Source: a virus
Virus record (IMG/VR): IMGVR_UViG_3300000976_000137
Coordinates: 1-50,995 of that record
Reading direction: 5' to 3' (one strand)
DNA length: 50,995 nucleotides
Below are positions 15,447-40,134 of this stretch, piece after piece. Positions within the stretch are counted from its first letter, which is position 1; the number at the start of each line of letters is the position of its first letter. The notes under the pieces were generated by a model. That model did no database searches, was not told where the DNA came from, and saw nothing but the letters and a program-made list of their open reading frames with translations. Position numbers and translations under genes: made by a program.

Positions 15447-16796
15447 TTATTCTAAGAATAGTTTTATCTTTTGATTATAGCCGTTTACACTAAATTCTTT
15501 TAAGCCCGTTCCATCGGCATTAATACGAAAAATCTTATCCTTATTCTGAAAAATAGTGTAACCAGCATTTTCAAAACGATAAATATTGCCTGCTTTATAG
15601 GAGGTTATCTTCTTACTTTCTTTAGTGATGACATCATAAACCCAAGTACCTTGGTTTAGCAAATCGCCATGTGTAGTATAGAGTAACTTGCGGTCGGAGA
15701 GCCACCCAAAAGCAACATCATTTCTGATATGTTCTTCATAAAAGGGTATGTCTGCGGAGTGGAAAAGCTGGGTTTGTTCCTTTGTTTCAAGGTTGATGAT
15801 AGAGAGGTAATGCCCATGTTTTCGCTGTTGAACGTAGTTCTTTTCTTGAATAAAGAGCATAAAATCATGACCAGGTGAAATACATCTGGCTTTCCCATTG
15901 GCAAAGCGTCGCATATTATCAGTAAATTCCATATCAAGTACAGAATGAGGAATGGGTGTTACAGTCGTTGAGGTTGCAAAATTATAAATCCAGCCCCCGT
16001 ATAAATAGTCGTCATTTTGTTTTGCTTTCTCTGTTATAAAAGCGGTATGGGCATCTAGCCATATCATTGGATAACCTCTCGTTGAATATATCTTATCTCC
16101 ATCAAGTGGATGCTTTTGATAAGTCTTTAAATCTACCGTATAAGGGGCGAAATAATTTCGAGGTGACCTTGCGGTAACAAATCTACCTGTTGGCGAAATT
16201 ATACCTTGTTTTTCAACAGGTTTTTTATATTGAAAGTGAAACTCTGTCTCATACCCTGGCGCACCTAGAAAAGGATTGTTTTCTATCGTTCCTTTTTTTG
16301 CATCAACAATGTAATAATTTTGCCGATAATTAAGGCAGATATAATCCCCGTACCAATGGTCTATTGGTATTTTGTAACTGAATACACCTAATTGAGTTAA
16401 TTGCCGATGATTCACTAAGCCCCCAGCTTTCCAACTAATATCGGCTGCCCATAAATCTCTGTCTTTATGATAAAGAACATAGTTCATATCAGGCGAGATT
16501 AAGCCATTTTGCTTAAAATCTAGCCTTCTGATGAACTTACCTTTTTTGCCATAAAGCCAGAGAGATTTACTATCATTAATGATAATCGTATCTAGCCCTG
16601 CTACTTTTTTGAGGTCGCCAGGAACAAAAGACAAAGGAACTTTGCTAAAATCTCGGATGTCAAATAGTTCCTTACCCACAAAGAAGTAATATTTATAGTC
16701 GCTCGTATCAGTAAGTGCGGTATTTAGTGTCGTAATTGCGAAGGCTGTTGTAAATGTAGAAAAGAATAGAGCAATTGCCAGTAGTGATTTTCTCAT
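15447..16796 (-). CDS. secreted beta-propeller-like protein (TolB/PD40-like guess)
   Basis: 449 aa with the signal peptide 'LLAIALFFSTFTTAFA'. Repeated aromatic/Gly-rich beta-strand-like segments, including 'ISPDMNY' and 'ISPTGRF'. Confidence 0.6.
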   Translation of the reverse strand: MRKSLLAIALFFSTFTTAFAITTLNTALTDTSDYKYYFFVGKELFDIRDFSKVPLSFVPGDLKKVAGLDTIIINDSKSLWLYGKKGKFIRRLDFKQNGLISPDMNYVLYHKDRDLWAADISWKAGGLVNHRQLTQLGVFSYKIPIDHWYGDYICLNYRQNYYIVDAKKGTIENNPFLGAPGYETEFHFQYKKPVEKQGIISPTGRFVTARSPRNYFAPYTVDLKTYQKHPLDGDKIYSTRGYPMIWLDAHTAFITEKAKQNDDYLYGGWIYNFATSTTVTPIPHSVLDMEFTDNMRRFANGKARCISPGHDFMLFIQEKNYVQQRKHGHYLSIINLETKEQTQLFHSADIPFYEEHIRNDVAFGWLSDRKLLYTTHGDLLNQGTWVYDVITKESKKITSYKAGNIYRFENAGYTIFQNKDKIFRINADGTGLKEFSVNGYNQKIKLFLE

Positions 16797-16939: not shown

Positions 16940-17218
16940 ATGGAAGAACATGATAAAAACCTAGAATTTACAAAAAGGTATTTGCTGCAAAATGGCGAAC
17001 GCTTAAAGACTTTACGTAAAGCAAAGGGCTTTAAAAACTATGAGAAGTTTGCTTATCTGAATGATATAGGACGCTCTCAATATGGAAAGTATGAGAAAGG
17101 AGCAGATATGCGCCTTAGTACCTTTTTTCGTGTACTAAAAGCAATGAATGTGAATCCCATTGAGTTTTTTAGTGAAGATTTTGATTTTAAGGAATGGGGC
17201 GAAGAACCCAAATCCTAG
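16940..17218 (+). CDS. XRE-family HTH transcriptional regulator
   Basis: 92 aa. 'LKTLRKAKGFKNYEKFAYLNDIGRSQYGKYEKGADMRLSTFFRVLKAM' fits the Cro/C1-type HTH pattern. Confidence 0.8.
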   Translation: MEEHDKNLEFTKRYLLQNGERLKTLRKAKGFKNYEKFAYLNDIGRSQYGKYEKGADMRLSTFFRVLKAMNVNPIEFFSEDFDFKEWGEEPKS

Positions 17219-17235
17219 CTTCTTTTTCTTTTCAC
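17219..17235 (-). repeat. copy of the GTGAAAAGAAAAAGA(AG) motif (reverse orientation)
   Basis: 'cttctttttcttttcac' starts 1 nt after the XRE stop codon and is identical to 41590..41606. Confidence 0.7.
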
Positions 17236-17519
17236 GGTTTCTGTCTCAAGCGGCGGATTTGGTAGCTATAGTTGCCATGAGAAAAATAGGGTAGGGCGGT
17301 ATTGCCTTTGGGGTATGTTAATTTTGATACAGACCTTGAATTATTATCGTTTGTGCAAAAAAGCAAAATTTAGACTTCTCCTACTTTCCTATAAATCAAC
17401 CCTTTAGCCCATTATGTATTTTGGCCAGTTTGCACAGATTAGAGTTTGTAGAATGTCCCTTTTTTGACGTAATTGCGTCTCTTTAGCTATCGTTACTATG
17501 GGTGAATAAGGTAGGGTAG

Positions 17520-18233
17520 TTATTCGGCTAACTCGAAGGAAAATCCACAATCACCGCAGATGATGTTGAGTTCTAGCTTTCCCCAGACATTGTTATTACA
17601 GGGGCAGCTATACTTATTTTTGGAAGTCTTGGGTTTAGGTGGAGCTTCGCTTTCATCCAACCCCATAATGCCACTAATGCTTACCATTCCTGCTAATCCG
17701 CTTGTGAACATGGCTGTATTTTTCCGAAAATCACCTTCGACTGAAGTAAAGGGCAACTTATATTCGTCTGGCATTTCGTCCAAGGCTTTGAGAAATTTCC
17801 CTCCTTTTTCGGGATAATCGCTCATATTTTGCCCTGTCATTCTACCGCCAATTTGCCCGTTATGGCTGGGTATCAAGCCAACCCATAGCATTTGTGATGC
17901 CCATTCTTTGTTGTGGTAGCCATTACGGGAAGGCTTACCAAGTGTATATTGCCAGATATGGCATTGTTCATGCACTAGCGTACTATACACATCGACTAAA
18001 GACATGGAGAGAATTTCGGGATTTAGCGAAAGTTCGTGAATTGTTCCTTTCCCTGCTTCATCCTCTGCTTTGCGCCAACGGAAAGGAGCAACAAAGCCCA
18101 TTGCCTTGCTCTTACGGCTGAGGTTCAGAATCACAGGCGGCAATTCATTATCAAAAAGCTTTTCGTTGAAATATTCGTAAGCATCCTCAAAAGCTTCAAA
18201 TTGTGCGGTCGTAGGGTGCATTTCAATTCCCAT
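17520..18233 (-). CDS. SprT-like zinc metallopeptidase-domain protein with C-terminal zinc ribbon
   Basis: 237 aa. 'LVHEQCHIWQ' (HExxH), 'GYHNKEWA', and C-terminal 'CPCNNN...CGDCG'. Confidence 0.75.
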   Translation of the reverse strand: MGIEMHPTTAQFEAFEDAYEYFNEKLFDNELPPVILNLSRKSKAMGFVAPFRWRKAEDEAGKGTIHELSLNPEILSMSLVDVYSTLVHEQCHIWQYTLGKPSRNGYHNKEWASQMLWVGLIPSHNGQIGGRMTGQNMSDYPEKGGKFLKALDEMPDEYKLPFTSVEGDFRKNTAMFTSGLAGMVSISGIMGLDESEAPPKPKTSKNKYSCPCNNNVWGKLELNIICGDCGFSFELAE

Positions 18234-18248
18234 TATCTTAAATTTAGA

Positions 18249-18314
18249 TTGTAAAGTACCTTACAAAAATAAGAGCTTCGAATGAGAAATTCAATTTTGT
18301 AAGGTACTTTACAA
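18249..18314. promoter_or_regulatory. pair of perfect 20-bp inverted repeats (candidate recombinase or operator site)
   Basis: 'ttgtaaagtaccttacaaaa' (18249..18268) and its exact reverse complement (18295..18314) are separated by 26 bp. Each arm is itself an 18-bp near-palindrome. Confidence 0.6.
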
Positions 18315-18335
18315 GAAAATTTGCATCAAAAAAAG

Positions 18336-18368
18336 TCACTTTAATTAATGGTTCATTAATTAAAGTGA
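18336..18368 (-). terminator. perfect 15-bp stem / 3-nt loop hairpin, with a T-tract on the minus strand
   Basis: 'tcactttaattaatg' gtt 'cattaattaaagtga'. The A7 run on the plus side reads as T7 after the hairpin on the minus strand. Confidence 0.45.
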
Positions 18369-18506
18369 GTGGCTTAATAATCTGATAATCAAAGAATTAA
18401 TTTTTAGACTAGACTTCTTTTTGCTTTTTGACTTTAATAAACGTTGATTAATCACAATTATTAAAGCATTTTTCACTATTTTTAGGATTCTAAAAAACAC
18501 CGTGTT

Positions 18507-19091
18507 ATGAAGAAAAAAAGAAGCACCAAACCGCTAAAATGGAAGGAAGCCAAAAAAGCATTACTATTTTTGGAATCGGAAGAAAAGTACCACTACCTTC
18601 TTATCATTGCCGTTGGTTTTTATACTGGCTATCGCATTGGCGATATGTTGGAACTCAAATATGAAGATTTTGAAGGCGATGCCCTAAACATCACCGAACG
18701 CAAAACTTCCAAGCAGCGCCCCGTTCCCGTAATTGGAGATTTACGGCGCATCGTTACCTTGTGCCAGGAGCAATTCAACCGCAAGCCAGAACATTACCTT
18801 TTTATCCGTACCCGTTTCTTTACCAATCAGCCCATTACCACAGCCGCAGCTATCACCCGTATTCGGAAAGCTTTGCAATTTGCAGGAGTGAAAGGCAAAC
18901 ATTTAACGGCTCATACCTTACGAAAGACCTTTGCCCTTCGTTATTATGAATTGGCACGAGAAACAGAGGGTGATTACCGTGCTTTGAATGAACTTTCCAA
19001 ACAATTGAATCACGCTAGTACGGAAGTGACTCGTCGCTATATCGGTCTAGAGGAACAAATCGTGCAAAATATCTTTGATAATTTTGCCTGA
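18507..19091 (+). CDS. short tyrosine recombinase (catalytic domain only)
   Basis: 194 aa. 'GYRIGDML' (Arg I), 'HTLRKTFA' (H-x-x-R) and 'TRRYIG' (catalytic Tyr). No N-terminal core-binding domain. Confidence 0.75.
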   Translation: MKKKRSTKPLKWKEAKKALLFLESEEKYHYLLIIAVGFYTGYRIGDMLELKYEDFEGDALNITERKTSKQRPVPVIGDLRRIVTLCQEQFNRKPEHYLFIRTRFFTNQPITTAAAITRIRKALQFAGVKGKHLTAHTLRKTFALRYYELARETEGDYRALNELSKQLNHASTEVTRRYIGLEEQIVQNIFDNFA

Positions 19092-19280
19092 CCCAAAAGG
19101 CTCATTTTGTGACACTATTAGCCCAAAAGTGTCTAATTGATACAAATTTAAGCAAAATTAGACGTTAATATATTGTTTAAACGTATTTTGCTTGAAATAT
19201 TCCTTGTCAGTTGTACAGAAGATTTTATTTACATTAATCAGCAATACGTACACGAGGTTATTTTTTACTGTATTTTGAAC

Positions 19281-19727
19281 TTAAGCTTGATGAACTTCAG
19301 AAATAGACGCTTCTTCATAATCTAGTACATCGTTCTCATACTCTTTTTTTACATAAGATTCTATTTTATCATAAGGAAGGCTACTTGGTATATCTACTGC
19401 AATTAACTGGTCTTTTCTACTGATTTCTGAATCACAACCAAGATTCTTTATAGCTTCATTTACTTTGTCAATATCATCTTCTTCAAAAACATAAATTCTT
19501 ATGGTACTATTACCTGATGGCTTAATGAGGTGATTTACCTCGTACATTCCATCAATTAGTTCCGCACTAACAATATCACCATAGGCATATTTTTTTACAT
19601 AAAAAGGAATATTATCTAATTGAAAACCGTCTTTATGTGGAGTTGCCCAACAACTCTCAACCATATATTTGTTTTCTTCTGTATTAAAAAATCTAAATAA
19701 TATCTTTATGTGTTTTGAATTCTTCAT
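19281..19727 (-). CDS. DUF4265-like immunity protein for the upstream RHS toxin
   Basis: 148 aa. 'GFQLDNIPFYVKKYAYGDIVSAE...PSGNSTIRIYVFE' matches the DUF4265 pattern as I recall it. Lies immediately downstream of the toxin tip. Confidence 0.7.
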   Translation of the reverse strand: MKNSKHIKILFRFFNTEENKYMVESCWATPHKDGFQLDNIPFYVKKYAYGDIVSAELIDGMYEVNHLIKPSGNSTIRIYVFEEDDIDKVNEAIKNLGCDSEISRKDQLIAVDIPSSLPYDKIESYVKKEYENDVLDYEEASISEVHQA

Positions 19728-19829
19728 TTTATTATCTTTAATATTGAACCCACCTAAATAATGCAGTTAGGTTAAAAATTAACATAATTCAAATTTCGTG
19801 CAATAATGTTGTTTATATTTTTTGAATTG

Positions 19830-22800
19830 CTAATTATTGTAATAATCTTCTGGTAGCTTATCGCTTTTTTTCCGATTACAGTCTCTGCAAAGAATCTGTC
19901 GGTTATCAGAAGTTGTATTCCCCCCATGTTTTTTAGGGTAAATATGGTCATATTGAGCTTCATTACCAGGTGGTTTAACACCTTTTTGTGATTTCTTAGC
20001 ATCAACTAATTGTACATCACAATCGGCACATCTAAATTCTCCATCATTGTTCTTTATATTTTCTTGCTTGGCTTCACTTTTCTGCTTCTTTGTAAAACTC
20101 TTTCCTTCTTTAGGGCCTCCTTTTGACCCTGTTTTCATATTTACAATTGCATTATTGCCAGTAAGATTATTAAAGGCAGTAGTCGCAACACCAGCACTTG
20201 CAGCCGCTCCTGTACCAAGTGCAACTGCTGCACCCGCCCCAACTGGTCCGGTAACAGGGGTTGTTAAACTTGAGCCAGTAGCTGCAACTGTTCCCAAAAT
20301 CGTTCCCGCAGTTCCAGCAACTAAAGAAAGGACATCCCCTGTTTGTTGCCCTATTGCAGCTGCTTGAGCATATTTGCCAAAATCATTGGGGTTTCCTCTA
20401 GTACCAGGGAAATTACCCGTTAAGTTAGAGCTTATAGAATTAGCTACACCTGCTACAAATACAGCACTATTAATTAACGCCTCCTTACAAACTTCACAAT
20501 CACCATTTGGGTCATTGAATAAGACGGGATTATTCATCCCAAATTTGTATGGAGTCCAACCTGTAAACAATCCTGCTTCGGGGTCTACTTGCAACCAGCG
20601 AGCTGTTGTTGGATTGTAAGTTCGATATTTTGCAAAGTCTAAACCAAATCCAAAATCGGCATTTCTCTCAAAACCATTGAACAAATAATCGTAAGTGGGA
20701 TTAACTCTTAATCCTGATCCACGCTGTCTTAATCCATAAGGATAGTAGGATGATGTTTCAGATATTTCAGTATTATCAATTGTTCCATCTGTATTTTTAT
20801 CTGAGAATAGAACACGCTGATTCTTTAAATGATCTTTGATCGCATATTCGTAATATGGGGAAGAATTACCAAAAAATAAACGTCCTACATCAAAATAAAG
20901 TGCCTCTAACGTATCATTACTATATTCAATATCGTCAAAATAGTCTTGAGTTAGCAGAATAGTATCTACTAACTGGTTAAGCATATTTTGTTGCTTACCT
21001 GTTGTCTGTTTTTGTAATTTTTTACCTTCTCCATCATATAACCAATCAATCTTACTCCCATTGGCAAAGCTTACTTGATAGGGCAAGTTATGATAATTGT
21101 ATGATATTTGGATGCCTTTATTGGGGTCAATTGTTTGATTACCGTTGTTATCATAATCGTAATCGGCACTACTGCGTTGTACAAAACCATCGGTTTCAAA
21201 TCCACCTTGAGGGCAATTAGCTATTTTGGCAGTAAAAATAGCTCCTGACTTGGCATGAAATCCTGGTTTTAGAACGATGCTATCCCCAGCTTGATAGGTA
21301 ATCGCAGCATTAGCATTGACGACATTATTAGCTTCTAGCATTTCCTCGACAGCATGTAGCTGCGTATTATCCAAAGGATTATCTACTAATTTACTGGTTG
21401 GGCAGGGGGCAGTATCTGCTATCGCCTTCAGTCGATTAGTACCAGTAACATAACTATAACTTAAATTGTCTATTTGTTGAGTCTGTAAATTAGAACTATT
21501 TCCGTATAAGCCCCTTCTGGTCAAACTGTTAATATTCCCTCTTAAATCATAGCTATAAGTTGTCCCATAAGCATTATTATGGAGGTTATAATTAGCAGCG
21601 GTGAGGCGGTTTAAGAAATCATATTGGTAGTCATAGATTTGTGACTGTCCGTCTTTGAATTCCCATGTTAGGCTAGCGATATTGCCCTCATATTGTGGCG
21701 TAATGCCTTGGTCATAGGCTATTTGCAAAGAAAACAGGTCATCTGCTGCCATCGTTTCATTAATACCTTTAAGGAAACGATTTTCTAAGTAAGTGTAGTT
21801 ACATTCCTGTAAAAAACCGTTCGTTGTACCGCTTAAAAACTCCTTTAATAGTAAATCCTTATGATCATAGGCTTTTCGGCATAAATGCTGAGATGTACCA
21901 TTCTGTAGGTTGTGGTGAGTATCAATAGGTCTGCCTTGATGGTCATAGGATTGGGTAATGGTATCTCTTTGGCTATTAAAGGCACTAATATGATAACGCC
22001 GTCTGGTTTTGACCACGTTATCCAAGTAGTCATAATTCATGAAACGTTGCAATAAGCCATTTCGATGATTATTCCCCGAATCAGTAATCATTCTGCCAAA
22101 ATCATCATAAAAATAGAAACGTTCTATGAAGGTATTGCTTACTTGATTGCCATTTAAAACGTAGTTGTTAAGCGCTGTTAATCGCCCGATGTCTATTGAT
22201 GGGTTGGTAAACCCTGTGAGAGAGTTGTTTGGTCTTAAACCATCATAGTAATTTTCCGTCCAAACCTCGTTAACAGTCGTTGGCGTTGTATTTAGTCCTG
22301 TTTTTGTAACCCTTCCATATACATCATATTGGGTTATCATCCATTTTCCGTCAGTCCGTAAATTGCCATCTTGAAAGGCGATAGGTATATTTCTTGGCTC
22401 ATAGACCAAGGTTGTTTTTTCCTTGTCGGGTATTTTGATTTCTAGCTTATTATCTTCCCCAGAGTAGAGGGTCGTAAAAATCAAGTTAGCATCCGTAGCA
22501 CTTGCCGCAGGAGGGATAATGATGGTTTCTCGCTCTTTTTTATCATAAATAGTGTAGGTACTGGTCTGACTACTACCCGACTGGTTCTGTTGTCTAAGTA
22601 AGATAGGTTTTCCTCGTTTATCAGATAGTATAGTGCTTCTATCGCCCGTCTGTGTACTACTTCCATCTGGCTCAATCGTAGTGATGGTATTGAGTTCTCC
22701 GATGGCGTAAGTAATAGAAGTGCCAGGAACAGTAATTGCCGTTTGATTACTCCCATACAACGTATGCGTGGTATACCAGTCAGGCGGTGTAACTGCTACG

Positions 22801-25800
22801 GGGCGATTAAGTGGAGAAACTTCATATTGCGTAACAGTAAAAGCAGTTCCATTAGGTACGGTTCTAAACGAACCGTTACTTAAAAGGCTTTCAAAAGGCT
22901 CATAAGCCATTGCTACCCTACTTTGATTATCATAACTGACGGCGGTAATAATATCTTTGGGGTCAGCCGCATCGGGTGAATGTTTGATTTGATTGGTCTG
23001 CAACAGCCGTCCCAATCCTCCTAAATACTGTCTAGTTTCGATGGCTTGCAGCGCACTTAGATTCAACCCATCAGGTTGAAAAGTGACTTTTTGATTAATG
23101 AAATTATGCGTATTTGTCCCATCTTGGTATTGGTAGCTGATGTCTGTAAGTACGTTGCCATCCCGCTCATTAATCTGGATTAACCGCATCAAGGGATCAA
23201 AGTCAAAATCTGTGTCCTGTGCATCTATATCAATGGTTTCACTTGCGATCCTTGTTCCCGTAAAATAGTTTGCCACCCATTGAAAATTCTCAAAAGTTCG
23301 AGTTTTAATCTGCTTATTGATGGCATCGTAGGTATAAAATTCTGTTTCCCATCCTTTACTTGTCGAATTGGCAGGTCTGCCTACTGCCATATTATAAGCC
23401 CCGTGATGTTCTAGCGTATCCCATCCACTATTTGGACCTGTTACTTGTAGATTGCCACCAGCATCCCAAGTCATTTCATAATCTTCAAAAAGATAAGGGT
23501 AAATCGGGTCTAAACCACTACCGCCTCGCAGTCCAAAATTATCAAAGAAATCACAGTTGAGCCGTTGCCCCTTTGTTTGCAAGGCTGTTCCATTTTCTTC
23601 TACTTTATGAATCGTTTCAATAGGGGTCGCAATTTGATTACGAGCTACCATTGAATCATAAACCGTCTGGGTAAAATCAAAGGGGTAACGATGTTCGGTG
23701 ATAAATTTTAAATCATCCGAATTGGTCATGCTTACACCAACAGGTGCTAAGTGACGGTTAAGATTGTCATATTCATACACCATCTGTGTACTCACCCCAT
23801 CCCGAAAACTGGTCACGACTGATTTTTGAAACTGATTAGGAGAGATATTTTGATAGGTGCGATGAAAATACCAAGTTTGCTGTCCACAAACAATGGGAGG
23901 AGCTGTCTTAATAATAAGATTCGGTGAATTAGTGCTAATAATCGTTCTAGGCGTTACTGCCGACTGATTCACCAGCGTCGCTTGATTAGCTTCTACCTTA
24001 AATGCACTTGTTCTATCCGACTTTCCTTTATACACATTGAGTTGTGCAGGTGGTCGAGGAAACTGATTAACAAAATTAAAAATGGGGTCAAAGCTACCAA
24101 AGAAGGTATAGGTATTATAGCCATTATCCGACTCACTATTGCCTAGTATCTCTCTAACGTTTTGGTATCCTAACGAAATTCCGTCATAGCCCCCTAGCGG
24201 AACGATGCTATTATCGGTAAAATAAGCGGCTTCAACCGCCCCCTCCACCAATCCACCTGCAGTAATAGATTGTCCATCAACAAAATAAGCATATCGGGGA
24301 ATTTGGTATAAAATTCCACTTGATTCATTCGGTAGATTCTCGTTTTTATACTCAAAAGTTTTGATAACATCAGGATTGAGATTCTGTCCATCCTTAGCCG
24401 TTATTTTTCGGATGCGGAGTCCACCAGCAGGACGAGTGGCAAAAAACTCATCTTGAATGGTAAAGAGGGCAAACCGAGCCTGTCCATTATTGCTACTGAC
24501 CTCAAAGATATAAGGTACATTGAGGCTTAACGCTCCCAAGTTTGTTAAAGGAACGTCATCTCTTATTTCAAATTGTTGGCTGCTATTGAGATTAAAACTA
24601 TAAAAGCCTCTTTGAATGGGGTTATTCGGGTCGGTGACTTCTAAGGCTCGAATATTTAAAGTGGGTAAGGGCAAATTACAATCAATGCTACCGTCCCCTG
24701 CATCATCTACTATTTTGGTCAAAACAGCGGTGAAATACGCTCGGTCTATTTCTCCTTGGGAAGTAAAAGTGTAAGGCGTGATAGTGGTTTCATCATGCGC
24801 TCCACAGCATTGTAATTCTAACGGATTGGGACAGCTTCTAATTTCTGGTACTAAGGTAGTTTCCTCTCCTTGAATTTGTCCGTAATAATCATTGAGTTCG
24901 TATTCAAATTCAACGCTTCCCCCCAATGGGTTATTGATTTTTGTTAAAATGCCATATTGGGTATGGGTTAAACTAGGATTCCGATTTGCTTGTCCTTCGA
25001 TTAAGATTCTCCCGTTGGGAAGGGTCAATCTGGTATCTTCGGGTAGGTTAATGGGTAAATTATTATTGGTGAATTGCCCATTGAAGAATCCCCATTCATC
25101 GGTTGCCTTATCTAGCCTTTGAGGCAAATAAGGTGACCCATCAGTATTCAGAGGTCCATCATATTCAAAACTGTAAGGAGGGATTTCAATATAAGTACCT
25201 GTGCAGGAAACTTCTTGTACTGATAAGAGCCGAAGTCGCTTCGATTCGGAGCGCTGATTGACGGGAAAAGCGGGGTCTTTGAAATAATCGTAGGCAAAGC
25301 GAAAGCGTTTACAGAATTTGGTGCCGCTACTAATCGAAAGGGAATCCAAACGGTAGGAAGTGCCATTGACATCTTCTCTAGCTGTGTTGGCAGCAAAAGT
25401 AATTGTTTCGGTAGGGCTTGTAATGGTGGCGAGGCGCAATCCTCTGGTTACTTGGGTGGTCGTAAAAAAATGATTGGCATCATAAGAAGAGCCCACACAG
25501 CTTTGACTTGCAGACCACCCACTATACCCCACACCGCCACAACCTGTATAATTAATCTGGCAAGAGGAAGGAGTTACGTAGCTGTAATTTTCTGTTTGAT
25601 AATCTAAGGTGATATTATCGATGCCATCATAAGACTGAATGCGCAGCAAGTACCAAGAAGAAATCCGCTCCATGTCTCCTTGATTAATGGTTCTTTCTTG
25701 GGCAACTCGATTATCGGTCGGGTCTTGGCCAAAAAAGTATTTGGTGCCATCTTTGTCGATAATGGTAAAACCTAAAAATGGTCCATTATTTTCGGTGGAT

Positions 25801-26348
25801 TCAACTAGCTTTAAATCCTGCTTAGGCACAAACTCAACCATACCAGGTCCATCTCCTGTAAAATAAAAGCGTCCAGAGGTGCCATTGGGAAGGGAAAAAC
25901 TAAAGAGATCTGGTTCTTCATCACGAGAATTGATAATCGCTTCAAGTTGATTGTCTTCAAGAAACTGTCCATTGCGATAATAGCCTAGGGCATCATCATC
26001 GGCACGATCGAGGATGGTACGAGTAATCATTCCCCCTGCACTTAGATCCCAATTCCCCGTCCACGAACTCAAAGTGGCCAGTTTGATACCTGCCGAGTGA
26101 TAGCTCAACGAAATGGGTAAACTGACTTTGCCGTCTGATACCGTATATAACGGAATAGTATTGTTTGAAATGCCTGTAAAATAAGAAACGGGTACATCCA
26201 CATATTTGCCAAAAGAAGTAGCAGAGGGCGTAGGCATGACTACATCTCCTACATGGCTATTGGTTGGTTGTGACCATCCATTTTGTGTATGAATTAGGAG
26301 GCTTAATCCTAAAAAAAGGAAACGATTTACAAGAGAGAGCTGATTCAT
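19830..26348 (-). CDS. RHS/YD-repeat polymorphic toxin with C-terminal HNH nuclease domain
   Basis: 2172 aa with the signal peptide 'FLFLGLSLLIHTQNGWSQ' and many YD-type repeats. The RHS core ends at 'RYTYNPTTARWLQVDPEAGL...NDPNGD' (about 20499..20513). A Gly/Ala-rich linker follows, then the HNH motif 'YDHIYPKKHGGNTTSDNRQILCRDCNRKKSD' (19860..19955). Confidence 0.9.
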   Translation of the reverse strand: MNQLSLVNRFLFLGLSLLIHTQNGWSQPTNSHVGDVVMPTPSATSFGKYVDVPVSYFTGISNNTIPLYTVSDGKVSLPISLSYHSAGIKLATLSSWTGNWDLSAGGMITRTILDRADDDALGYYRNGQFLEDNQLEAIINSRDEEPDLFSFSLPNGTSGRFYFTGDGPGMVEFVPKQDLKLVESTENNGPFLGFTIIDKDGTKYFFGQDPTDNRVAQERTINQGDMERISSWYLLRIQSYDGIDNITLDYQTENYSYVTPSSCQINYTGCGGVGYSGWSASQSCVGSSYDANHFFTTTQVTRGLRLATITSPTETITFAANTAREDVNGTSYRLDSLSISSGTKFCKRFRFAYDYFKDPAFPVNQRSESKRLRLLSVQEVSCTGTYIEIPPYSFEYDGPLNTDGSPYLPQRLDKATDEWGFFNGQFTNNNLPINLPEDTRLTLPNGRILIEGQANRNPSLTHTQYGILTKINNPLGGSVEFEYELNDYYGQIQGEETTLVPEIRSCPNPLELQCCGAHDETTITPYTFTSQGEIDRAYFTAVLTKIVDDAGDGSIDCNLPLPTLNIRALEVTDPNNPIQRGFYSFNLNSSQQFEIRDDVPLTNLGALSLNVPYIFEVSSNNGQARFALFTIQDEFFATRPAGGLRIRKITAKDGQNLNPDVIKTFEYKNENLPNESSGILYQIPRYAYFVDGQSITAGGLVEGAVEAAYFTDNSIVPLGGYDGISLGYQNVREILGNSESDNGYNTYTFFGSFDPIFNFVNQFPRPPAQLNVYKGKSDRTSAFKVEANQATLVNQSAVTPRTIISTNSPNLIIKTAPPIVCGQQTWYFHRTYQNISPNQFQKSVVTSFRDGVSTQMVYEYDNLNRHLAPVGVSMTNSDDLKFITEHRYPFDFTQTVYDSMVARNQIATPIETIHKVEENGTALQTKGQRLNCDFFDNFGLRGGSGLDPIYPYLFEDYEMTWDAGGNLQVTGPNSGWDTLEHHGAYNMAVGRPANSTSKGWETEFYTYDAINKQIKTRTFENFQWVANYFTGTRIASETIDIDAQDTDFDFDPLMRLIQINERDGNVLTDISYQYQDGTNTHNFINQKVTFQPDGLNLSALQAIETRQYLGGLGRLLQTNQIKHSPDAADPKDIITAVSYDNQSRVAMAYEPFESLLSNGSFRTVPNGTAFTVTQYEVSPLNRPVAVTPPDWYTTHTLYGSNQTAITVPGTSITYAIGELNTITTIEPDGSSTQTGDRSTILSDKRGKPILLRQQNQSGSSQTSTYTIYDKKERETIIIPPAASATDANLIFTTLYSGEDNKLEIKIPDKEKTTLVYEPRNIPIAFQDGNLRTDGKWMITQYDVYGRVTKTGLNTTPTTVNEVWTENYYDGLRPNNSLTGFTNPSIDIGRLTALNNYVLNGNQVSNTFIERFYFYDDFGRMITDSGNNHRNGLLQRFMNYDYLDNVVKTRRRYHISAFNSQRDTITQSYDHQGRPIDTHHNLQNGTSQHLCRKAYDHKDLLLKEFLSGTTNGFLQECNYTYLENRFLKGINETMAADDLFSLQIAYDQGITPQYEGNIASLTWEFKDGQSQIYDYQYDFLNRLTAANYNLHNNAYGTTYSYDLRGNINSLTRRGLYGNSSNLQTQQIDNLSYSYVTGTNRLKAIADTAPCPTSKLVDNPLDNTQLHAVEEMLEANNVVNANAAITYQAGDSIVLKPGFHAKSGAIFTAKIANCPQGGFETDGFVQRSSADYDYDNNGNQTIDPNKGIQISYNYHNLPYQVSFANGSKIDWLYDGEGKKLQKQTTGKQQNMLNQLVDTILLTQDYFDDIEYSNDTLEALYFDVGRLFFGNSSPYYEYAIKDHLKNQRVLFSDKNTDGTIDNTEISETSSYYPYGLRQRGSGLRVNPTYDYLFNGFERNADFGFGLDFAKYRTYNPTTARWLQVDPEAGLFTGWTPYKFGMNNPVLFNDPNGDCEVCKEALINSAVFVAGVANSISSNLTGNFPGTRGNPNDFGKYAQAAAIGQQTGDVLSLVAGTAGTILGTVAATGSSLTTPVTGPVGAGAAVALGTGAAASAGVATTAFNNLTGNNAIVNMKTGSKGGPKEGKSFTKKQKSEAKQENIKNNDGEFRCADCDVQLVDAKKSQKGVKPPGNEAQYDHIYPKKHGGNTTSDNRQILCRDCNRKKSDKLPEDYYNN

Positions 26349-26382
26349 AGCTTCTTTGTTTTAATGGTTATTTTGATGTTCA

Positions 26383-27720
26383 TTATTTTGATAACGTAAA
26401 ACGTTGGGTCTGTTTTTCAGATAGATTAATGGCGGTGATAAAGTAGATGCCCGCAGGGTAATGACTGCAATCTACCCGTAGCAAAGTTCCATTTCCATTT
26501 ACCCTAAAATTCTGCAAAAGCTGACCGTTTGCATTAAACAGTTGAAAAGATTGCCACTCACTATCCGAAGGATAGCTAATGCTAATCTGATTGGTCGCAG
26601 GATTGGGGCTAATCTGAAAGGATGTGGTTGTTTTTTGAGTAGTCACTATCGGTTGATTTCTAGCAAGAGCTTCGGTTTCTAATAAAGATTGACCACATAA
26701 ACTTTTGGCATCTTTTAAGCTACCTCTAGGACCACCTTCACTTAGCATGGCGGTAATGCGGAGCATTTGACCGAGGGTAAAACTATACATGAAATTATCG
26801 TCGGTAGCATCCATATAATTCATGCTATATTCTACTCGTCCGTCACATAGACTGATATGGCGGTATTCGGCATTAGCGCCATAGTTGGGCGCATTATGCA
26901 CAGGCGTATCAAAAATTCGGTCGTCAGCGCATGGTTTACTATCATTCCAAAGTTCCAGTAGTCCGAGATAAGAGCCTGTAAGATGGACGAGTGACTTCAT
27001 TTGCGCATATTGACGAAACTTGTCCCCCGAAGGTTCAACTAGTTGTCGATTAATGACAATGCCATCCGATTTTTTAGGACTCCAAGGCATCTGGGCATAA
27101 CCCGCTTCGGTATCGGGTAAATCGACTATCCAAATATTGAGATAATTTTCGGGTTGATAGGCGGTAAAATCAAAGCCTTCGACTGCATTATTTCCCAAAG
27201 CAGTTGTCACTAAATCATCAACTGACCATTCTTCAATGCCGACTGGTATATAATTATAGCCCAGAGAACCATTCTCCATCAAATCTACATCCGCTAAGCA
27301 AAATTGAATGCTACCACTAGGCGGCATTAGGCTTTCAAGGTCCAATATATCATGAGCGGGATGTTCCCATTCCGTTTTATATAGAAAAGCATCATTGAGT
27401 GCGGTTAGTTGGGCTTCAATAGCAGCTGGACTAATCGGATTATCCTTATAGACATGGTGAAAGATAATGGGAATGGTGAAGCTTGGTAACTCCCCGTTTA
27501 GTTGGTAGCTTTTTACATAACGTTCGATAGCTTGTCTGCGCTCAACGACTGTTTCATCAGCCAAGCGAAATTGTTTATCAACTGCTTGGGTGGAAAATTG
27601 GCGATAGATTCTTTGGGAAAAACTCGTTTGAGGATTCAAGGAGCAGCTAATAAACAGGAAAAGTACGAACCTTAATGGTAGATTGTGGTAGTTAAAACAG
27701 AGAGAGCTAGTTAGCTTCAT
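26383..27720 (-). CDS. M43 (pappalysin/ulilysin)-like protein with degenerate active site and T9SS C-terminal sorting domain
   Basis: 445 aa with a signal peptide. 'VHLTGSYLGLLELWND..CADDRIFDTP' (26947..26988) aligns to the recalled M43 motif 'HExxHxxGxxH' but keeps only the first His. The C-terminus 'ISPNPATNQISI...AGIYFITAIN...RFTLSK' looks like a T9SS type-A sorting domain. Confidence 0.65.
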   Translation of the reverse strand: MKLTSSLCFNYHNLPLRFVLFLFISCSLNPQTSFSQRIYRQFSTQAVDKQFRLADETVVERRQAIERYVKSYQLNGELPSFTIPIIFHHVYKDNPISPAAIEAQLTALNDAFLYKTEWEHPAHDILDLESLMPPSGSIQFCLADVDLMENGSLGYNYIPVGIEEWSVDDLVTTALGNNAVEGFDFTAYQPENYLNIWIVDLPDTEAGYAQMPWSPKKSDGIVINRQLVEPSGDKFRQYAQMKSLVHLTGSYLGLLELWNDSKPCADDRIFDTPVHNAPNYGANAEYRHISLCDGRVEYSMNYMDATDDNFMYSFTLGQMLRITAMLSEGGPRGSLKDAKSLCGQSLLETEALARNQPIVTTQKTTTSFQISPNPATNQISISYPSDSEWQSFQLFNANGQLLQNFRVNGNGTLLRVDCSHYPAGIYFITAINLSEKQTQRFTLSK

Positions 27721-27925
27721 TGGTATGGATTTTTTGTTCTACTAATGAATCATCCGTTTAAGATGATTTTGGTTTTTATATATTGTGTAACAATAATACT
27801 TCCAAGGTATGTAAATGATTTATATATACAAAAATATTTGTGTGTTTTTTGTTGAAAGAATTTTAAATTATCCTAAAAGAAGTAGAAGGGCGACACAGCG
27901 TCCTCCCTTCTAAAATAGCTATTGA

Positions 27926-28303
27926 TTAGTGTTCACTAGGCAATAGTAAAACATTACCTTCCATCCAAAGCGTGATGCTATATAATGGGAAAGTGGTAAA
28001 ATTAAGGGTAAAAGTTTCAATAATTTTCTTGTTACCATTCTCAATGGTGATGATACAACCTTCACCTCGTCTTACCAGTCGCCACACTTGAAAATCAAGC
28101 GCTTTGATTTTTGAATTAATTTGATGGCTAAATATAAATTCCAATAGCCAATAGCATTCTGCATTTTTGGCTAAGAATCTCACTCCATCGGTGTAACGGA
28201 AGGCTTTGAACAGCGGATGGAAATAATACTGTGTCGTGCCTGAAAACTGCTTGAGGGCAGCTAATAACTCGCCTTTACTCATGTATGTAAAAGTTTTGGA
28301 CAT
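27926..28303 (-). CDS. DUF6876-like protein (paralog of 446..832)
   Basis: 125 aa. Aligns along its whole length with the 446..832 product ('HPLFKAFRYTDGVRFLAKNAECYWLLEFI', 'LLLPSEH'). Confidence 0.65.
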   Translation of the reverse strand: MSKTFTYMSKGELLAALKQFSGTTQYYFHPLFKAFRYTDGVRFLAKNAECYWLLEFIFSHQINSKIKALDFQVWRLVRRGEGCIITIENGNKKIIETFTLNFTTFPLYSITLWMEGNVLLLPSEH

Positions 28304-28450
28304 GGTTAGACCATGTGTTAAAAAATGAAGTTAAGCGTAGTTATAGCAAAGGATTATTGCAGTATTATTACAGCGACCGTAATTTGAATCGAATAGGTAA
28401 AAGTTGTATCTTTAGGGCAGAAACTAAGTAGAGAGAGTTTCACTCATAGT

Positions 28451-28491
28451 GCTTCATTACCTGTTTTACAGCTAATGAAGCCTTTTTATTT
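28451..28491 (+). terminator. orphan plus-strand intrinsic terminator (possible 3' end of a small RNA)
   Basis: The 9-bp stem 'gcttcatta'/'taatgaagc' has a 13-nt loop and is followed by 'ctttttattt'. No plus-strand ORF lies upstream. Confidence 0.45.
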
Positions 28492-28681
28492 CTAGGAGTT
28501 AGGTTGATAAAAGAGAAGTTTGTATTTAATAAAAAACAATGTATTTTTGAATAGCCTTTAATGATTCTCTCTATGTAACGGGGTCGTTTCTCTCTACTTG
28601 GTAAATAGACTCGACCTCGATTTTATTGATTTACTAAAAGCACCATTCAATATAAATATTGGTTAGCTTGGTTAAAAAGAA

Positions 28682-28714
28682 GAAGCCCTAACGCTTGACC
28701 AGCATTAGGGCTTC
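28682..28714 (-). terminator. terminator of the 28746..29078 gene
   Basis: The 10-bp stem 'gaagccctaa'/'ttagggcttc' is followed on the minus strand by 'ttctttttaacc'. Confidence 0.6.
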
Positions 28715-28745
28715 ATTCCGTAATGGATATACGATAATTTTAGGC

Positions 28746-29078
28746 TTATCCAATCAGTTTAATGAGGGCAACAGTCAATCCCACACCACCAAGTACAGTA
28801 GCCATCATGGTTTTTTGTAGACTGATGATAGTGTCTTTTACATTGATACTGATATTGGAAATATCTTCTTTAAGTCCGTCTCGGACGCTATCAATTCTTT
28901 CATTAAGTCTTTTTTCTGATTGACGTAAATCTTCTTTTGTAGCAACGCCATTGAGGGTAATTTCTTGAATCGCTTCAATGAAACCTTCTGCTTCTTGTTC
29001 TGAATAGCCTTTATCTTGAAGTAATTTTACTACTTTATATGTGTCCAGATTCAGGGTTGCAGATTCTGTTGAGAACAT
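28746..29078 (-). CDS. DUF1640-like coiled-coil protein with C-terminal TM anchor
   Basis: 110 aa. 'LDTYKVVKLLQDKGYSEQEAEGFIEAIQE...VATKEDL' plus the hydrophobic tail 'VLGGVGLTVALIKLIG'. Confidence 0.5.
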   Translation of the reverse strand: MFSTESATLNLDTYKVVKLLQDKGYSEQEAEGFIEAIQEITLNGVATKEDLRQSEKRLNERIDSVRDGLKEDISNISINVKDTIISLQKTMMATVLGGVGLTVALIKLIG

Positions 29079-29243
29079 TTTATGCCTTTCTTAGTGTATA
29101 CACTATAACATAGGCTAAATGACTTGGCAAATAAGAGTAAACTTCTGATTAGAAAAACCTTTAATTATAGACTCAAAGCTTATCTGCTGACTATAACTTT
29201 CCATAACATAAATTATCAAACTGGATTATGATGGTGCTAGTAT

Positions 29244-29483
29244 TTACACAACACGCCAAACTCTGGCACCTTCTCCTTCTGGTCGGCAAACAAATTTCTT
29301 AGGCTTATAGCTGTACAACCGTGTCATAACAGCAAGCTTTCCTTTTTTATCTCTGGGAGGTTCTTCTAGAAATACACTATCGCCTACATCCATATTATCT
29401 GCTAAATGTTTCCAAAGCCCTGTTCTGGTTTTAGTGTTTTCAGGTATAGATACACCTTTTTCTATTTTGATATTTTCAAACAT
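29244..29483 (-). CDS. hypothetical protein
   Basis: 79-aa ORF. No family recognised. Confidence 0.45.
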   Translation of the reverse strand: MFENIKIEKGVSIPENTKTRTGLWKHLADNMDVGDSVFLEEPPRDKKGKLAVMTRLYSYKPKKFVCRPEGEGARVWRVV

Positions 29484-29647
29484 TAGTTGTAATCCTTACA
29501 GTTATTGATGACTTCAACACTAAATCCTATTGCTTTAATAGTCAATTAGTTCTTACAATGTTAAGGTTTCTAATAATGTTAAGGAATTGTGGTAGTATAA
29601 AATATTATCAATTCGCTAAAGGTTCAATCTTGAATATTTATTGTAGG

Positions 29648-30766
29648 TTAATTAATTGAATTAGAAATAGAAAATCTTTTTTTGTAAAATTCATTGTATT
29701 CATGTTTTAATCTACCTAATGGAATTGCTGGATGTATATTTATTTCATTAGCAAAACTGATAATTGTTTCACTTGAAAACTCTTCAGTTTTCTCAATAAA
29801 TTTTTTCCATTTTTTCTTGGGAATTAAATGATTTTCGGCAAAAATATTCGCTTCTTTTTCCTTGGAAGCCTGATTTCCTTTATTTCCAGCTATATCATCT
29901 ATGAAAGGAATTTCATTATTTTTATTTGGTTCTAAATGTCTATAAATATGTCCTAATTCATGAAAAAGCGTAAATGCTAGGTTATCTAAACGCTTGTGCC
30001 TGAGAGTAAGACCAATAGCAGGGTTATCCTTACTCCAAAAAGCAATACCATCTACTGGCACTTGGTCGGCTCTCGGTTCTATAATTAGTTTGATACCATA
30101 TTTGGGTAAAATTTTCTCCAGATTATCAACTATTGACTCGCCTAGAAATACACTTTTCAATTTCTCAATCAATTCTGATTCTGATTCTCGATTAAATGCT
30201 TCGATTTTTTTTAATTTGCTAGCCTTGTATTCCACATACTTAACCCAGCCTAGTAAGTTAACTGGATTTACTTTTAAAACAGGAGATTTTTTAAAATTCT
30301 TATAGGTAGCACTTTCCAATTCCATTTTTATTTCATTGGCACTTTTTACTCCATATATCGTAAAAAGGAAATCTATATCTTTTTCTAGAATATTGGATAA
30401 TTTCTTTAGTTTTTTGAAATAGTTTAAAGCTACGTATTGTTTTAAATCAACCCATTTTCTAATTATAGAAACTTTTTTTTGCAGGTTTTTGTCAAGATTT
30501 GCTTTAGCCAGTTCATAATTAGACTGGAGATTAATCCAGTAATCTTTATCTATACCTAAAGCAGCTTCTAGGATAATAGCTAATTCAGTCGAAATACCTC
30601 TTTTTCCCTTTATAATCTCATTGAGTTGAGAATGTGCCATACCAATGGTAATAGCGAATTCTCTTTGCTTTAAATCTTTCTTATCTAAAATGTCTTTCAA
30701 ATATTCTCCAGGGGGAATTGCTATTGCAGGAGTTAATTTATTGATAACTTTTCCTTGTGCATCCAT
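29648..30766 (-). CDS. HigA-type HTH antitoxin fused to an ImmA/IrrE-family metallopeptidase domain
   Basis: 372 aa. N-terminus 'IPPGEYLKDILDKKDLKQREFAITIGMAHSQLNEIIKGKRGIS' (HigA-like HTH). C-terminal region 'TLFHELGHIYRH' (HExxH, COG2856-like). Confidence 0.8.
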   Translation of the reverse strand: MDAQGKVINKLTPAIAIPPGEYLKDILDKKDLKQREFAITIGMAHSQLNEIIKGKRGISTELAIILEAALGIDKDYWINLQSNYELAKANLDKNLQKKVSIIRKWVDLKQYVALNYFKKLKKLSNILEKDIDFLFTIYGVKSANEIKMELESATYKNFKKSPVLKVNPVNLLGWVKYVEYKASKLKKIEAFNRESESELIEKLKSVFLGESIVDNLEKILPKYGIKLIIEPRADQVPVDGIAFWSKDNPAIGLTLRHKRLDNLAFTLFHELGHIYRHLEPNKNNEIPFIDDIAGNKGNQASKEKEANIFAENHLIPKKKWKKFIEKTEEFSSETIISFANEINIHPAIPLGRLKHEYNEFYKKRFSISNSIN

Positions 30767-31416: not shown

Positions 31417-31755
31417 ATGGGTTATCCTAGATTTGAAATCGACACGGACTCGAAAGGGGAATTTCGTTTTAACTTATTTGCTGTAAACGCTAAAAACATT
31501 TTGCGCTCCAGCGAAGGTTACACCACTAAGCAAAATTGTATAAAAGCAATTGAATCTGTAAAAGCTAATGCCCCTAATGACAATCGGTACAAGCGAGGTA
31601 CTTCCAGTAATGGGCAATATTACTTTGTACTGAATGCTCGTAATGGCGAAGCATTAGGGATTAGCGAAATGTATACTACTGTTGCCAATCGTGAAAATGG
31701 TATTGCGGCAGTAAAACGAGATGCACCTGTCGTAACGATTGTCGATTTGACTTAA
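31417..31755 (+). CDS. YegP-family (tandem DUF1508) protein
   Basis: 112 aa with two repeats: 'FRFNLFAVNAKNILRSSEGYTTKQNCIKAIESVK' and 'YYFVLNARNGEALGISEMYTTVANRENGIAAVK'. Confidence 0.8.
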   Translation: MGYPRFEIDTDSKGEFRFNLFAVNAKNILRSSEGYTTKQNCIKAIESVKANAPNDNRYKRGTSSNGQYYFVLNARNGEALGISEMYTTVANRENGIAAVKRDAPVVTIVDLT

Positions 31756-38844: not shown

Positions 38845-40134
38845 TCATTGAAATACAGAAGCGGGTTTCATTGGTTTAATTATGACTTGACTATTCGTTC
38901 TATCATCAAGTATTTTGAAATACTTATTTTCCGTTTTTGAATTAAAAATTTCCGTGTAACCGTCTAATGTTTCAATTTCAATCGTAAACCCAATTGTATT
39001 TTTTGTGAGTGGAATTCTCACATCCTTTATCCAAGTTATTTCCCCAGTCTTAAAATTTGGTACTTTTTTCTCTACTGTTGGCATAGTAAAAGTTTTATAT
39101 GATACCCAACCGTCGATGTTTTTTCTTGCCAAGTTAGACCATGCCGTTTTTGCCAGCAATTTCAATGTAAACCCTGCATCTGAAACATTAACAAATTCCC
39201 AAGGACTATTTTCTTCTCTTCTTGTTACATGAAATACAGTTGATGATTGGATTAACTTATGTCCTGTTGGAACAATCGTCGGATAATTACATGTTTCATC
39301 GCTCCTTCTTCCACTTCTACATTTATAATGATGAGGAGGCTTAGGAGTATGATGCGAATGTTCTTTTCTATTTTTAGATTTCTCAGTAATTCCTATCCTA
39401 TAAGTTCCCATTACTTTTGGTAATGAGAACAAAGGGATTTTAAATTTTCTTTCTTCGTAGTTAGGAAATACTAATAGTTTTGTTGTTTTGTGAAATACTA
39501 CTAAATCTACCGTTTCAGTTTTTATTTTTTTCTTTGGATTACTAAATTTCTCCAACGGTATATTGAATTGAAGGGTGCTTGACCCAGATTGAATAGGTTT
39601 TATTTTTTCACCATTTACAATTAGGAATGGTTCATATTCATCCCCATATATATGAAGTCTACTTCCGTATATTGGCAGGCTCACGTTATCTTCATTTGAT
39701 AATTTTAAGAAATGAACTTTATCTGGTTTCCTAACTCTTGGAAACTTTTCAAAAAAAGGAATTCGAGAAATTGATTCATCCAAATTATCTGTTACGACCT
39801 GTATTTCTTTTACCGTTTTATACAGTCCATTATTGAGGTTATTTATTAGTTTGTCTAAATCAGTAAATACTCTTTGTTGAGTTATATCTAGTTTATCAAA
39901 AGTTTCATTCATTGATTTTGAATATGCTGCTTTTAAATTTTCTATTTGAACTTGGACTTGTTGAGAACCAACCATTATTGTTGTTCTTGCTTCTTCACCT
40001 GCCTTTTCAATTAAATTTTTTCCAGCTTGCTCTAATTTAGAAATTGCTACACCAATGGACAAACCCCCAAATTGACTGTAGGTAATATTATTAATGGTAA
40101 AAAAGATGATGATTAGAATGATGTTTCTTTTCAT
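38845..40134 (-). CDS. secreted hypothetical protein
   Basis: 429 aa with the signal peptide 'IILIIIFFTINNITYSQ'. No domain recognised. AT-rich. Confidence 0.6.
   Translation of the reverse strand: MKRNIILIIIFFTINNITYSQFGGLSIGVAISKLEQAGKNLIEKAGEEARTTIMVGSQQVQVQIENLKAAYSKSMNETFDKLDITQQRVFTDLDKLINNLNNGLYKTVKEIQVVTDNLDESISRIPFFEKFPRVRKPDKVHFLKLSNEDNVSLPIYGSRLHIYGDEYEPFLIVNGEKIKPIQSGSSTLQFNIPLEKFSNPKKKIKTETVDLVVFHKTTKLLVFPNYEERKFKIPLFSLPKVMGTYRIGITEKSKNRKEHSHHTPKPPHHYKCRSGRRSDETCNYPTIVPTGHKLIQSSTVFHVTRREENSPWEFVNVSDAGFTLKLLAKTAWSNLARKNIDGWVSYKTFTMPTVEKKVPNFKTGEITWIKDVRIPLTKNTIGFTIEIETLDGYTEIFNSKTENKYFKILDDRTNSQVIIKPMKPASVFQ

Follow-up and report, generated by a model that had tools for sequence, protein, structure and literature searches.

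The closest described relatives of the locus considered here are toxins enclosed in rearrangement hot spot (RHS) shells. In toxin complex (Tc) toxins, the B and C subunits together (BC; TcdB2-TccC3, YenB-YenC2) form a cocoon, a two-part RHS shell of about 2100 aa with an aspartyl-protease core, which encapsulates a hypervariable tip of about 200-300 aa; both fused and split gene layouts occur. In a survey of Tc toxins TcC was found almost wholly in Proteobacteria and Firmicutes, and Bacteroidetes are unmentioned (PMC7861908). The Rhs effectors of type VI secretion systems (T6SS), such as RhsA, Tre23-Rhs, Tse5 and RhsP, combine an RHS shell and an autoproteolytic DPxG core with a polymorphic toxin at the C-terminus; the immunity gene lies downstream, and toxin/immunity cassettes also occur as orphans. 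WapA of Gram-positive bacteria combines a signal peptide, RHS repeats and a polymorphic nuclease tip with an immunity gene, and acts in contact-dependent inhibition; it is anchored in the cell wall, has no outer membrane to cross and has no TcB-like half. Here we describe a three-gene module in the IMG/VR record IMGVR_UViG_3300000976_000137, whose 50,995 nt are called the window below. The module encodes a protein with a degenerate M43-like domain and a type IX secretion system (T9SS) sorting domain (pseudo-M43), a giant RHS toxin and a candidate immunity protein, and appears to have been captured by a circular mobilisable plasmid. An initial annotation had described a plasmid-borne RHS toxin with an HNH nuclease tip, a DUF4265-like immunity gene and no recognisable T6SS delivery markers. 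Its reading of a polymorphic toxin with a cognate-looking DUF4265 gene and a route other than T6SS stood, but it missed the double-size TcB-TcC-like cocoon and the pseudo-M43 partner.

Two other groups of toxins are similar in part. The TANFOR toxins of Bacteroidetes are polymorphic and have a signal peptide; they carry no sorting domain of their own, their neighbours do, and export by the T9SS has been hypothesised (PMC7073777). This parallels the RHS toxin, where the sorting domain is likewise on a neighbour. However, the carrier here is a BC-type RHS cocoon, and the TANFOR neighbours are SprB-repeat proteins, not pseudo-M43. Bacterial teneurin-like proteins (BiTLP) are Sec-dependent giant YD shells around polymorphic toxins; they have immunity genes, are proposed to lie at the surface and involve neither a T6SS nor TcA (PMC13018210). 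They are closed by an FN-plug and an NHL propeller, whereas the RHS protein has a TcB-like half and low fold similarity to them. Unlike Tc BC cocoons, the RHS protein has a Sec signal peptide, no TcA and no sequence-detectable SpvB/TcdB_mid, and its family has antibacterial-type tips with immunity genes, Bacteroidota hosts and the pseudo-M43 partner. Unlike T6SS Rhs effectors, it has a signal peptide and a TcB-like half that doubles the shell, lacks PAAR, prePAAR and the VgrG-binding region, and is encoded in a module without T6SS genes nearby. In the literature on DUF6443, DUF4265, T9SS with RHS, and TcB/TcC in Bacteroidetes, we found neither a description of this family nor a paper in which antibacterial tips, a signal peptide and a BC-type cocoon are combined with a pseudo-M43/T9SS partner.

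It is highly probable that the module is a Sec-dependent, non-T6SS polymorphic toxin/immunity system. The fuller statement, namely that it is a Sec-dependent and probably T9SS-linked member of a Bacteroidota-wide family of polymorphic toxin/immunity modules, carried on a plasmid, is the reading we favour by a small degree.

Architecture of the RHS protein

The toxin gene and the gene for the 148-aa protein behind it lie exactly where the initial annotation had placed them. The RHS protein has the following parts.

19830..26348 (-), RHS toxin open reading frame (ORF), 2172 aa
26271..26348 (-), signal peptide, Sec signal peptidase I (SPI) type, aa 1-26, predicted cut between GWS and QP, read from the sequence
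23079..26270 (-), N-module, the TcB-like half of the RHS cocoon, aa 27-1090 (AlphaFold2 (AF2) and Foldseek)
22782..23072 (-), DUF6443, junction of the TcB-like and TcC-like halves, aa 1093-1189 (Pfam PF20041, E 5.2e-15)
20748..22781 (-), TcC-like RHS half-shell, aa 1190-1867 (AF2 and Foldseek)
21201..21407 (-), GCX_COOH "3-coathanger stack" insertion of about 70 aa, aa 1648-1716 (NCBIfam NF045639, E 1.3e-17 at aa 1669-1713)
20499..20747 (-), Rhs-associated core, aa 1868-1950 (TIGR03696, E 8.3e-10 at aa 1868-1949)

The N-terminus, MNQLSLVNRFLFLGLSLLIHTQNGWS followed by QP after the cut, has a charged n-region, a hydrophobic core and small residues at -3/-1, in agreement with the Sec signal peptide noticed earlier. 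Glutamine is preferred at position +1 of signal peptidase I substrates in Bacteroidota, and Q27 (+1), which is invariant in the family alignment, fits this preference. The consensus AQP ends the signal peptides of nearly all members, and a hydrophobic segment followed by Q is present in 52 of 63 homologues. The AF2 model has a helix at aa 4-24 and then a low-confidence linker.

Two AF2 models were made, one of aa 1-1195 on a 50-sequence alignment and one of aa 1090-2172, and were compared with the PDB by Foldseek. The first is an all-beta shell with a predicted local distance difference test score (pLDDT) of 85 and a predicted template modelling score (pTM) of 0.81. The second is confident at aa 1100-1949, where pLDDT is near 90. 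The pLDDT of the tip and of the GCX_COOH insertion is below 50, and their models are thus structurally uninformative. The best matches of the N-terminal model are YenB (5kis_A; E 2.9e-24, template modelling score relative to the query (TMq) 0.45) and TcdB2-TccC3 (4o9x, 6suq; E about 1e-23, TMq 0.46-0.48), whereas T6SS Rhs proteins and teneurins match more weakly (TMq 0.09-0.15). The C-terminal half (aa 1090-1950) is most similar to TcC, with TcdB2-TccC3 (6suq; E 6.7e-30, TMq 0.50), YenC2 (4igl_B; score relative to the target (TMt) 0.69, root-mean-square deviation 6.2 Å), RHS2 and TccC2 (the latter two with TMt 0.64-0.66). As modelled, the RHS protein is built like a natural TcB-TcC fusion with a shell about twice the size of that of T6SS Rhs proteins, and the two halves would form one closed cocoon.

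The long YD-repeat shell claimed in the initial annotation is real despite a marginal match to Pfam RHS_repeat (E 0.02), since the family profile matches SGS1, RhsA and YenC2, and the shells modelled by AF2 are all-beta, with pLDDT near 90. A single-sequence phmmer search of the PDB gave marginal matches only, whereas these three proteins were retrieved by the family profile. A suspected likeness of the N-terminal motif FTG..IPLY..LSLPISLSYHS to SpvB/TcB was not confirmed by Pfam or by comparison of the N-module profile with the PDB.

The N-module also occurs as a stand-alone protein of 1200-1400 aa. In split loci of Chitinophagaceae, Flavobacterium defluvii, Hymenobacter and others, the DUF6443-RHS-toxin part is a gene of its own directly behind that of the N-module, and both encode a signal peptide. 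Among the related loci described below, this arrangement is seen in L063, L066, L067, L069, L070, L072-L076, L080 and L081, with N-module genes of 1120-1390 aa.

The Rhs core contains both parts of the bipartite aspartyl-protease motif, VDPEAGL with D1922 (DPEA) and NDPNGD with D1946 (DPNG), 24 aa apart, as the initial annotation had read it. D1946 and G1949 are invariant in a 36-sequence alignment, and conservation stops there. From this motif, the core is predicted to be autoproteolytic.

No PAAR, prePAAR, VgrG-interaction or T6SS adaptor domain was found in the RHS protein with Pfam or NCBIfam at E-values up to 10. There is also no room for an N-terminal PAAR or adaptor domain, since the TcB-like shell begins at about aa 50, directly past the signal peptide. 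A T9SS sorting domain of its own is likewise absent by Pfam and NCBIfam, the C-terminus being the HNH domain.

Two regions interrupt the shell. At aa 490-640 (window 24429-24881, minus strand) there is a variable, beta-rich insert of lower model confidence with cysteines C506, C514, C515 and C557, roughly at the position of the TcB beta-propeller gate. With about 150 aa, it is probably too short for a six-bladed propeller, and is a candidate docking or receptor domain. The GCX_COOH insertion is flanked by C1649 and C1712, has low AF2 confidence and is missing from all but 4-5 of the 36 relatives aligned. Possibly, it forms a loop on the surface of the TcC-like shell that is stapled by a disulfide.

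The conserved partner, the family and the toxin tip

Directly upstream of the RHS gene, at a distance of 34 nt, lies the partner gene.

26383..27720 (-), pseudo-M43 partner, 445 aa: signal peptide, M43-like domain, T9SS type-A sorting domain (aa 370-441)

The protein matches Pfam M43 (2.4e-7) and Por_Secre_tail (5.5e-10) and NCBIfam TIGR04183. Its zinc motif reads VHLTGSYLGLLELW (HLTGSYLGLLE) in place of HExxHxxGxxH, so that the glutamate and two histidines are replaced and no HExxH is present. The same degenerate motif is seen in 34 neighbour genes of related loci and in all 43 closest database homologues of the partner, whereas more distant matches keep HE[IM]GH (HExGH). Thus the partner is a member of the M43 fold and a predicted non-peptidase.

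The gene neighbourhoods of 83 loci, with 956 ORFs, were surveyed. A pseudo-M43 homologue is situated directly upstream on the same strand in 36 of the 83 loci and is the sole widely conserved neighbour. The sorting domain is present on 27 of 37 pseudo-M43 partners. Sorting-domain ORFs make up 47 of the 956, and approximately 32 of these 47 are immediately upstream of the RHS gene. In the reverse search, all three pseudo-M43 homologues on long contigs are followed by DUF6443/RHS genes, unlike an active-M43 control. The pseudo-M43/RHS gene pair is conserved, and the predicted link between the two is confirmed from either gene.

In L014, L019 (Neolewinella agarilytica) and L049, the partner is replaced by a non-homologous protein with Peptidase_S74 (endosialidase chaperone) and Por_Secre_tail. 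In L001, the upstream M43 gene is split from its sorting domain by a frameshift.

A search of 5.8 billion proteins yielded 150 homologues of the RHS protein. Most have 2100-2300 aa with DUF6443 and come from Saprospiraceae, Lewinellaceae, Haliscomenobacter and other Bacteroidota. According to precomputed Pfam matches their tips include ribonuclease, AHH, EndoU, REase-7, REase-9, GHH, Ntox44, Tox-HDC, peptidase M91 and others; tip lengths in the family are 190-300 aa. A scan of one genome per GTDB species gave at least 581 confirmed loci, mostly in Bacteroidota, with a few in Gemmatimonadota, Calditrichia and Desulfatibacillum. The family is thus large, uncharacterised and mainly of Bacteroidota, with polymorphic tips on a shared signal peptide and N-module. 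So many loci of the signal-peptide type among species representatives sit uneasily with the view, held in the initial annotation, that RHS proteins of Bacteroidota are mostly linked to the subtype T6SS-iii. The closest relative is in L003, a metagenome-assembled genome of an uncultured member of Saprospiraceae (79% identity over aa 10-1453), and the closest full-length relative is P0002 in L002 (74% identity).

The variable end of the RHS protein and the gene behind it have the following features.

19833..20498 (-), tip, 222 aa, aa 1951-2172
20142..20498 (-), Gly/Ala-rich hydrophobic pre-toxin segment, aa 1951-2069
19833..20051 (-), HNH nuclease domain, aa 2100-2172 (Pfam HNH 2.9e-8 at aa 2129-2164; HNH_5 2.6e-7)
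19281..19727 (-), DUF4265 protein, 148 aa, no signal peptide (Pfam 1.1e-25; PDB 5ueb 2.6e-7)

The tip agrees with the earlier description of a Gly/Ala-rich linker plus HNH. It consists, in this order, of a CxxC, three hydrophobic Gly/Ala-rich stretches (Kyte-Doolittle 19-residue maxima 1.29, 1.63 and 1.44), a Lys-rich linker and the HNH domain; Gly and Ala form 33% of its first 135 aa. The HNH residues D2134-H2135, N2149 and N2158 and the zinc cysteines C2107, C2110, C2154 and C2157 are present. With this motif, the tip is a predicted zinc-finger nuclease. The Gly/Ala segment is shared with the tips of L021 and L039, whose C-termini differ, and a similar segment is found in about 7-12 of 48 family tips. 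Since it precedes different toxin domains, it is suggested to be a separate membrane-active helper module.

The DUF4265 gene lies downstream of the toxin gene after a gap of 102 nt, close to the 100 nt given before, and encodes a candidate cytoplasmic immunity protein. Only five homologues of the tip were found in the database, all of them HNH proteins. In each of four independent contexts (the window, L001, L083 and L084/L085) the gene after the HNH tip or its homologue encodes a DUF4265 protein. In L083 there is an orphan HNH-DUF4265 pair, and in L084/L085 an RHS locus with HNH followed by DUF4265. In L001 (Haliscomenobacter hydrossis CP002691), downstream of the chromosomal family member, an orphan cassette at positions 17225-18875 encodes an HNH protein of 406 aa and a DUF4265 protein of 159 aa, which are 44% and 46% identical to the tip and the immunity protein of the window, respectively.

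The tip and the immunity gene bear the classic signs of cassette replacement, as their GC content at third codon positions (0.225 and 0.188) is below that of the shell (0.33-0.36) and nucleotide homology to L002 and L003, limited to the pseudo-M43 and RHS genes, stops before the tip. In L002 (6607-7123) the ORF of P0002 stops about 8 aa past the core motif, and Tox-PL-2 is encoded by a separate ORF whose start lies 34 nt further on, which may reflect either a split toxin or a frameshift introduced by sequencing.

Candidate export routes

The pseudo-M43 with its sorting domain is the best clue to the export route and points to the following mechanism. Both the RHS protein and the pseudo-M43 would cross the inner membrane by Sec. 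In the periplasm, the two half-shells would close as one BC-type cocoon around the tip, and the tip would be cut off after DPNG (D1946). The pseudo-M43 would bind the cocoon, and its sorting domain would bring the cocoon to or through the T9SS and tether it on the cell surface. Contact with a competitor would lead to release of the tip; the hydrophobic segment may aid its passage across the target membrane, where the HNH domain would degrade DNA. Plasmid-bearing kin would be shielded by the cytoplasmic DUF4265 protein. Neither a T6SS nor a TcA syringe would take part.

It is very improbable that the protein is instead a T6SS-iii Rhs effector of the classical type, served by a T6SS, VgrG and PAAR from the host chromosome while the plasmid brings only the effector and its immunity gene. 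The data cover the replicon only, and an RHS shell with a DPxG core is typical T6SS cargo, matched here by Foldseek to T6SS Rhs proteins with E 1e-18 to 1e-25. However, the TM-scores of these matches are 0.11-0.40, versus 0.45-0.69 for TcB and TcC; PAAR, VgrG and adaptor domains are absent from the RHS protein; and no T6SS gene family is conserved within 10 kb on either side in 82 related loci. On the replicon itself, PAAR, VgrG, Hcp and other T6SS families have no Pfam or NCBIfam match among all ORFs of at least 80 aa, as the initial annotation had it. Moreover, the Sec signal peptide is family-wide and, being conserved, is incompatible with cytoplasmic T6SS loading, so that the different export route proposed there is well supported. 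The fold comparison, with TcB and TcC as the best matches of the two halves, is more in line with a true Tc BC subunit that docks on a TcA syringe encoded elsewhere and acts on a eukaryotic target. Tc toxins are known with B and C fused, naturally or by engineering, as well as in separate genes (PMC7861908), and both layouts occur in the family, whose tips of 190-300 aa also fit the cocoon capacity reported in the same paper. Still, there is little to recommend this explanation. No gene of TcA size is present among the replicon ORFs or conserved as a giant neighbour in the flanks of related loci; Tc subunits, as far as PMC10847048 describes them, have no signal peptide and are freed by lysis; the insert at the beta-propeller position is short (about 150 aa); the tips, nucleases of the antibacterial type, go together with immunity genes; and 96.4% of the surveyed TcC come from Proteobacteria and 3.2% from Firmicutes (PMC7861908). 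Scarcely better are the chances of a surface adhesion or kin-recognition protein, similar to the bacterial teneurin-like proteins, in which the toxin tip is accessory. Those proteins are Sec-dependent surface YD shells with polymorphic tips and immunity genes (PMC13018210), and the family profile matches 9pt5 and 9ifo in the core region. However, TMq to teneurin-like proteins (9ifo) and teneurins is low (0.09-0.24), which led us to reject this reading; FN-plug and NHL domains were not detected, and the six phyla of that study exclude Bacteroidota (PMC13018210).

The serious competitor to T9SS coupling is a toxin exported by Sec but released without the T9SS, through vesicles, lysis or another outer-membrane factor, with the sorting domain incidental and the pseudo-M43 serving as a periplasmic chaperone, a plug or a receptor-binding accessory subunit. 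We regard this as improbable, though by far less so than the explanations above: the sorting domain is strongly enriched immediately upstream of the RHS gene, and it is kept when an S74 protein replaces the partner. For T9SS coupling of the cocoon, we would put the chance at even or slightly below. Several observations weigh against the mechanism set out above, some of which favour its competitor directly. The evidence for coupling is synteny only. The M43-like core is better kept than the sorting domain, with some 10 of the 37 partners, of about 335 aa, having none (Dyadobacter, Emticicia and others). In split systems the upstream protein is often a different one, a putative outer-membrane beta-barrel of about 480 aa that begins with a signal peptide, contains a coiled coil and ends in "...FRVGYNF". 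Approximately one third of the fused loci lack any partner of these kinds. The coupling is thus not universal. By estimate, a folded cocoon of about 240 kDa may also exceed the size of the T9SS translocon. As for the cocoon itself, its two halves were modelled separately, SpvB/TcdB_mid was not found by Pfam in the RHS protein, and the N-module profile retrieves no TcB among PDB sequences, so that the TcB relationship is one of fold and comes from the structural comparison alone.

The T9SS-linked mechanism in its strongest form would be a new route, in which a BC-type cocoon is exported by Sec independently of TcA and a pseudo-protease adaptor piggybacks it through the T9SS and anchors it on the surface. 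This is unlikely, if somewhat less so than release without the T9SS. In such a route, the outer-membrane beta-barrel partner may fill the adaptor role in other lineages.

The plasmid

The window is a complete circular replicon, since its first 49 nt (1-49) are identical to its last 49 nt (50947-50995); closed at this overlap, the contig is a circle of about 50.9 kb. Pfam identifies a Rep3 initiator, ParA, a TrwC relaxase, a type IV coupling protein, a single-stranded DNA-binding protein, a Toprim protein, DUF932 and KilA-N. No mating-pore genes are recognisable on the replicon beside the relaxase and the coupling protein. "Mobilisable plasmid", the term of the initial annotation, is a fair description of a replicon that is circular and has this set of transfer genes. 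A megablast search of PLSDB with window 17000-30000 found no known plasmid relative.

No meaningful match in Pfam or NCBIfam was obtained for six ORFs of 429-731 aa.

8348-10513 (-)
12724-14919 (+)
15447-16796 (-)
31930-33282 (+)
38845-40134 (-)
45199-46491 (+)

The sole match among them is a far sub-threshold NCBIfam match of one ORF, and NCBIfam gave nothing useful for ten unannotated plasmid ORFs. Some of the six may have conjugation or other transfer functions of an undescribed type.

Other genes of the replicon are the following.

17520-18233, SprT-like protein
18507-19091 (+), truncated tyrosine recombinase, 194 aa, catalytic domain only, convergent with the immunity gene
446-832 (+) and 27926-28303 (-), two DUF6876 paralogues, the latter just upstream of the toxin module
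29648-30766, helix-turn-helix and M78 (ImmA/IrrE-like) protein
31417-31755, tandem DUF1508 protein
33399-35222, patatin-like phospholipase, 607 aa

The truncated recombinase may be left over from the acquisition of the toxin module by the plasmid. A scan for sigma-70 promoters and intrinsic terminators gave results no better than for shuffled sequence, the model being one that does not suit Bacteroidota promoters. A single TAnnTTTG motif is situated upstream of the partner gene, which is weak evidence for an operon.

Colicin plasmids offer an analogy for a toxin/immunity pair that acts at the population level as an addiction module, and by this analogy such a role, suggested in the initial annotation, is plausible here. 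The plasmid location means that the module can be moved horizontally together with its immunity gene, like that of a bacteriocin plasmid. Should the T9SS link not hold, the locus would be an RHS toxin/immunity pair of the ordinary kind, albeit a very large one. As it stands, the locus provides a genetically testable hypothesis of how signal-peptide RHS toxins of Bacteroidota cross the outer membrane. If it is true, Tc-like cocoons would work without the TcA syringe, a lineage would be added between Tc toxins, T6SS Rhs effectors and teneurins, and the function of the T9SS would extend to interbacterial antagonism and contact-dependent killing, here mobilised by a plasmid.

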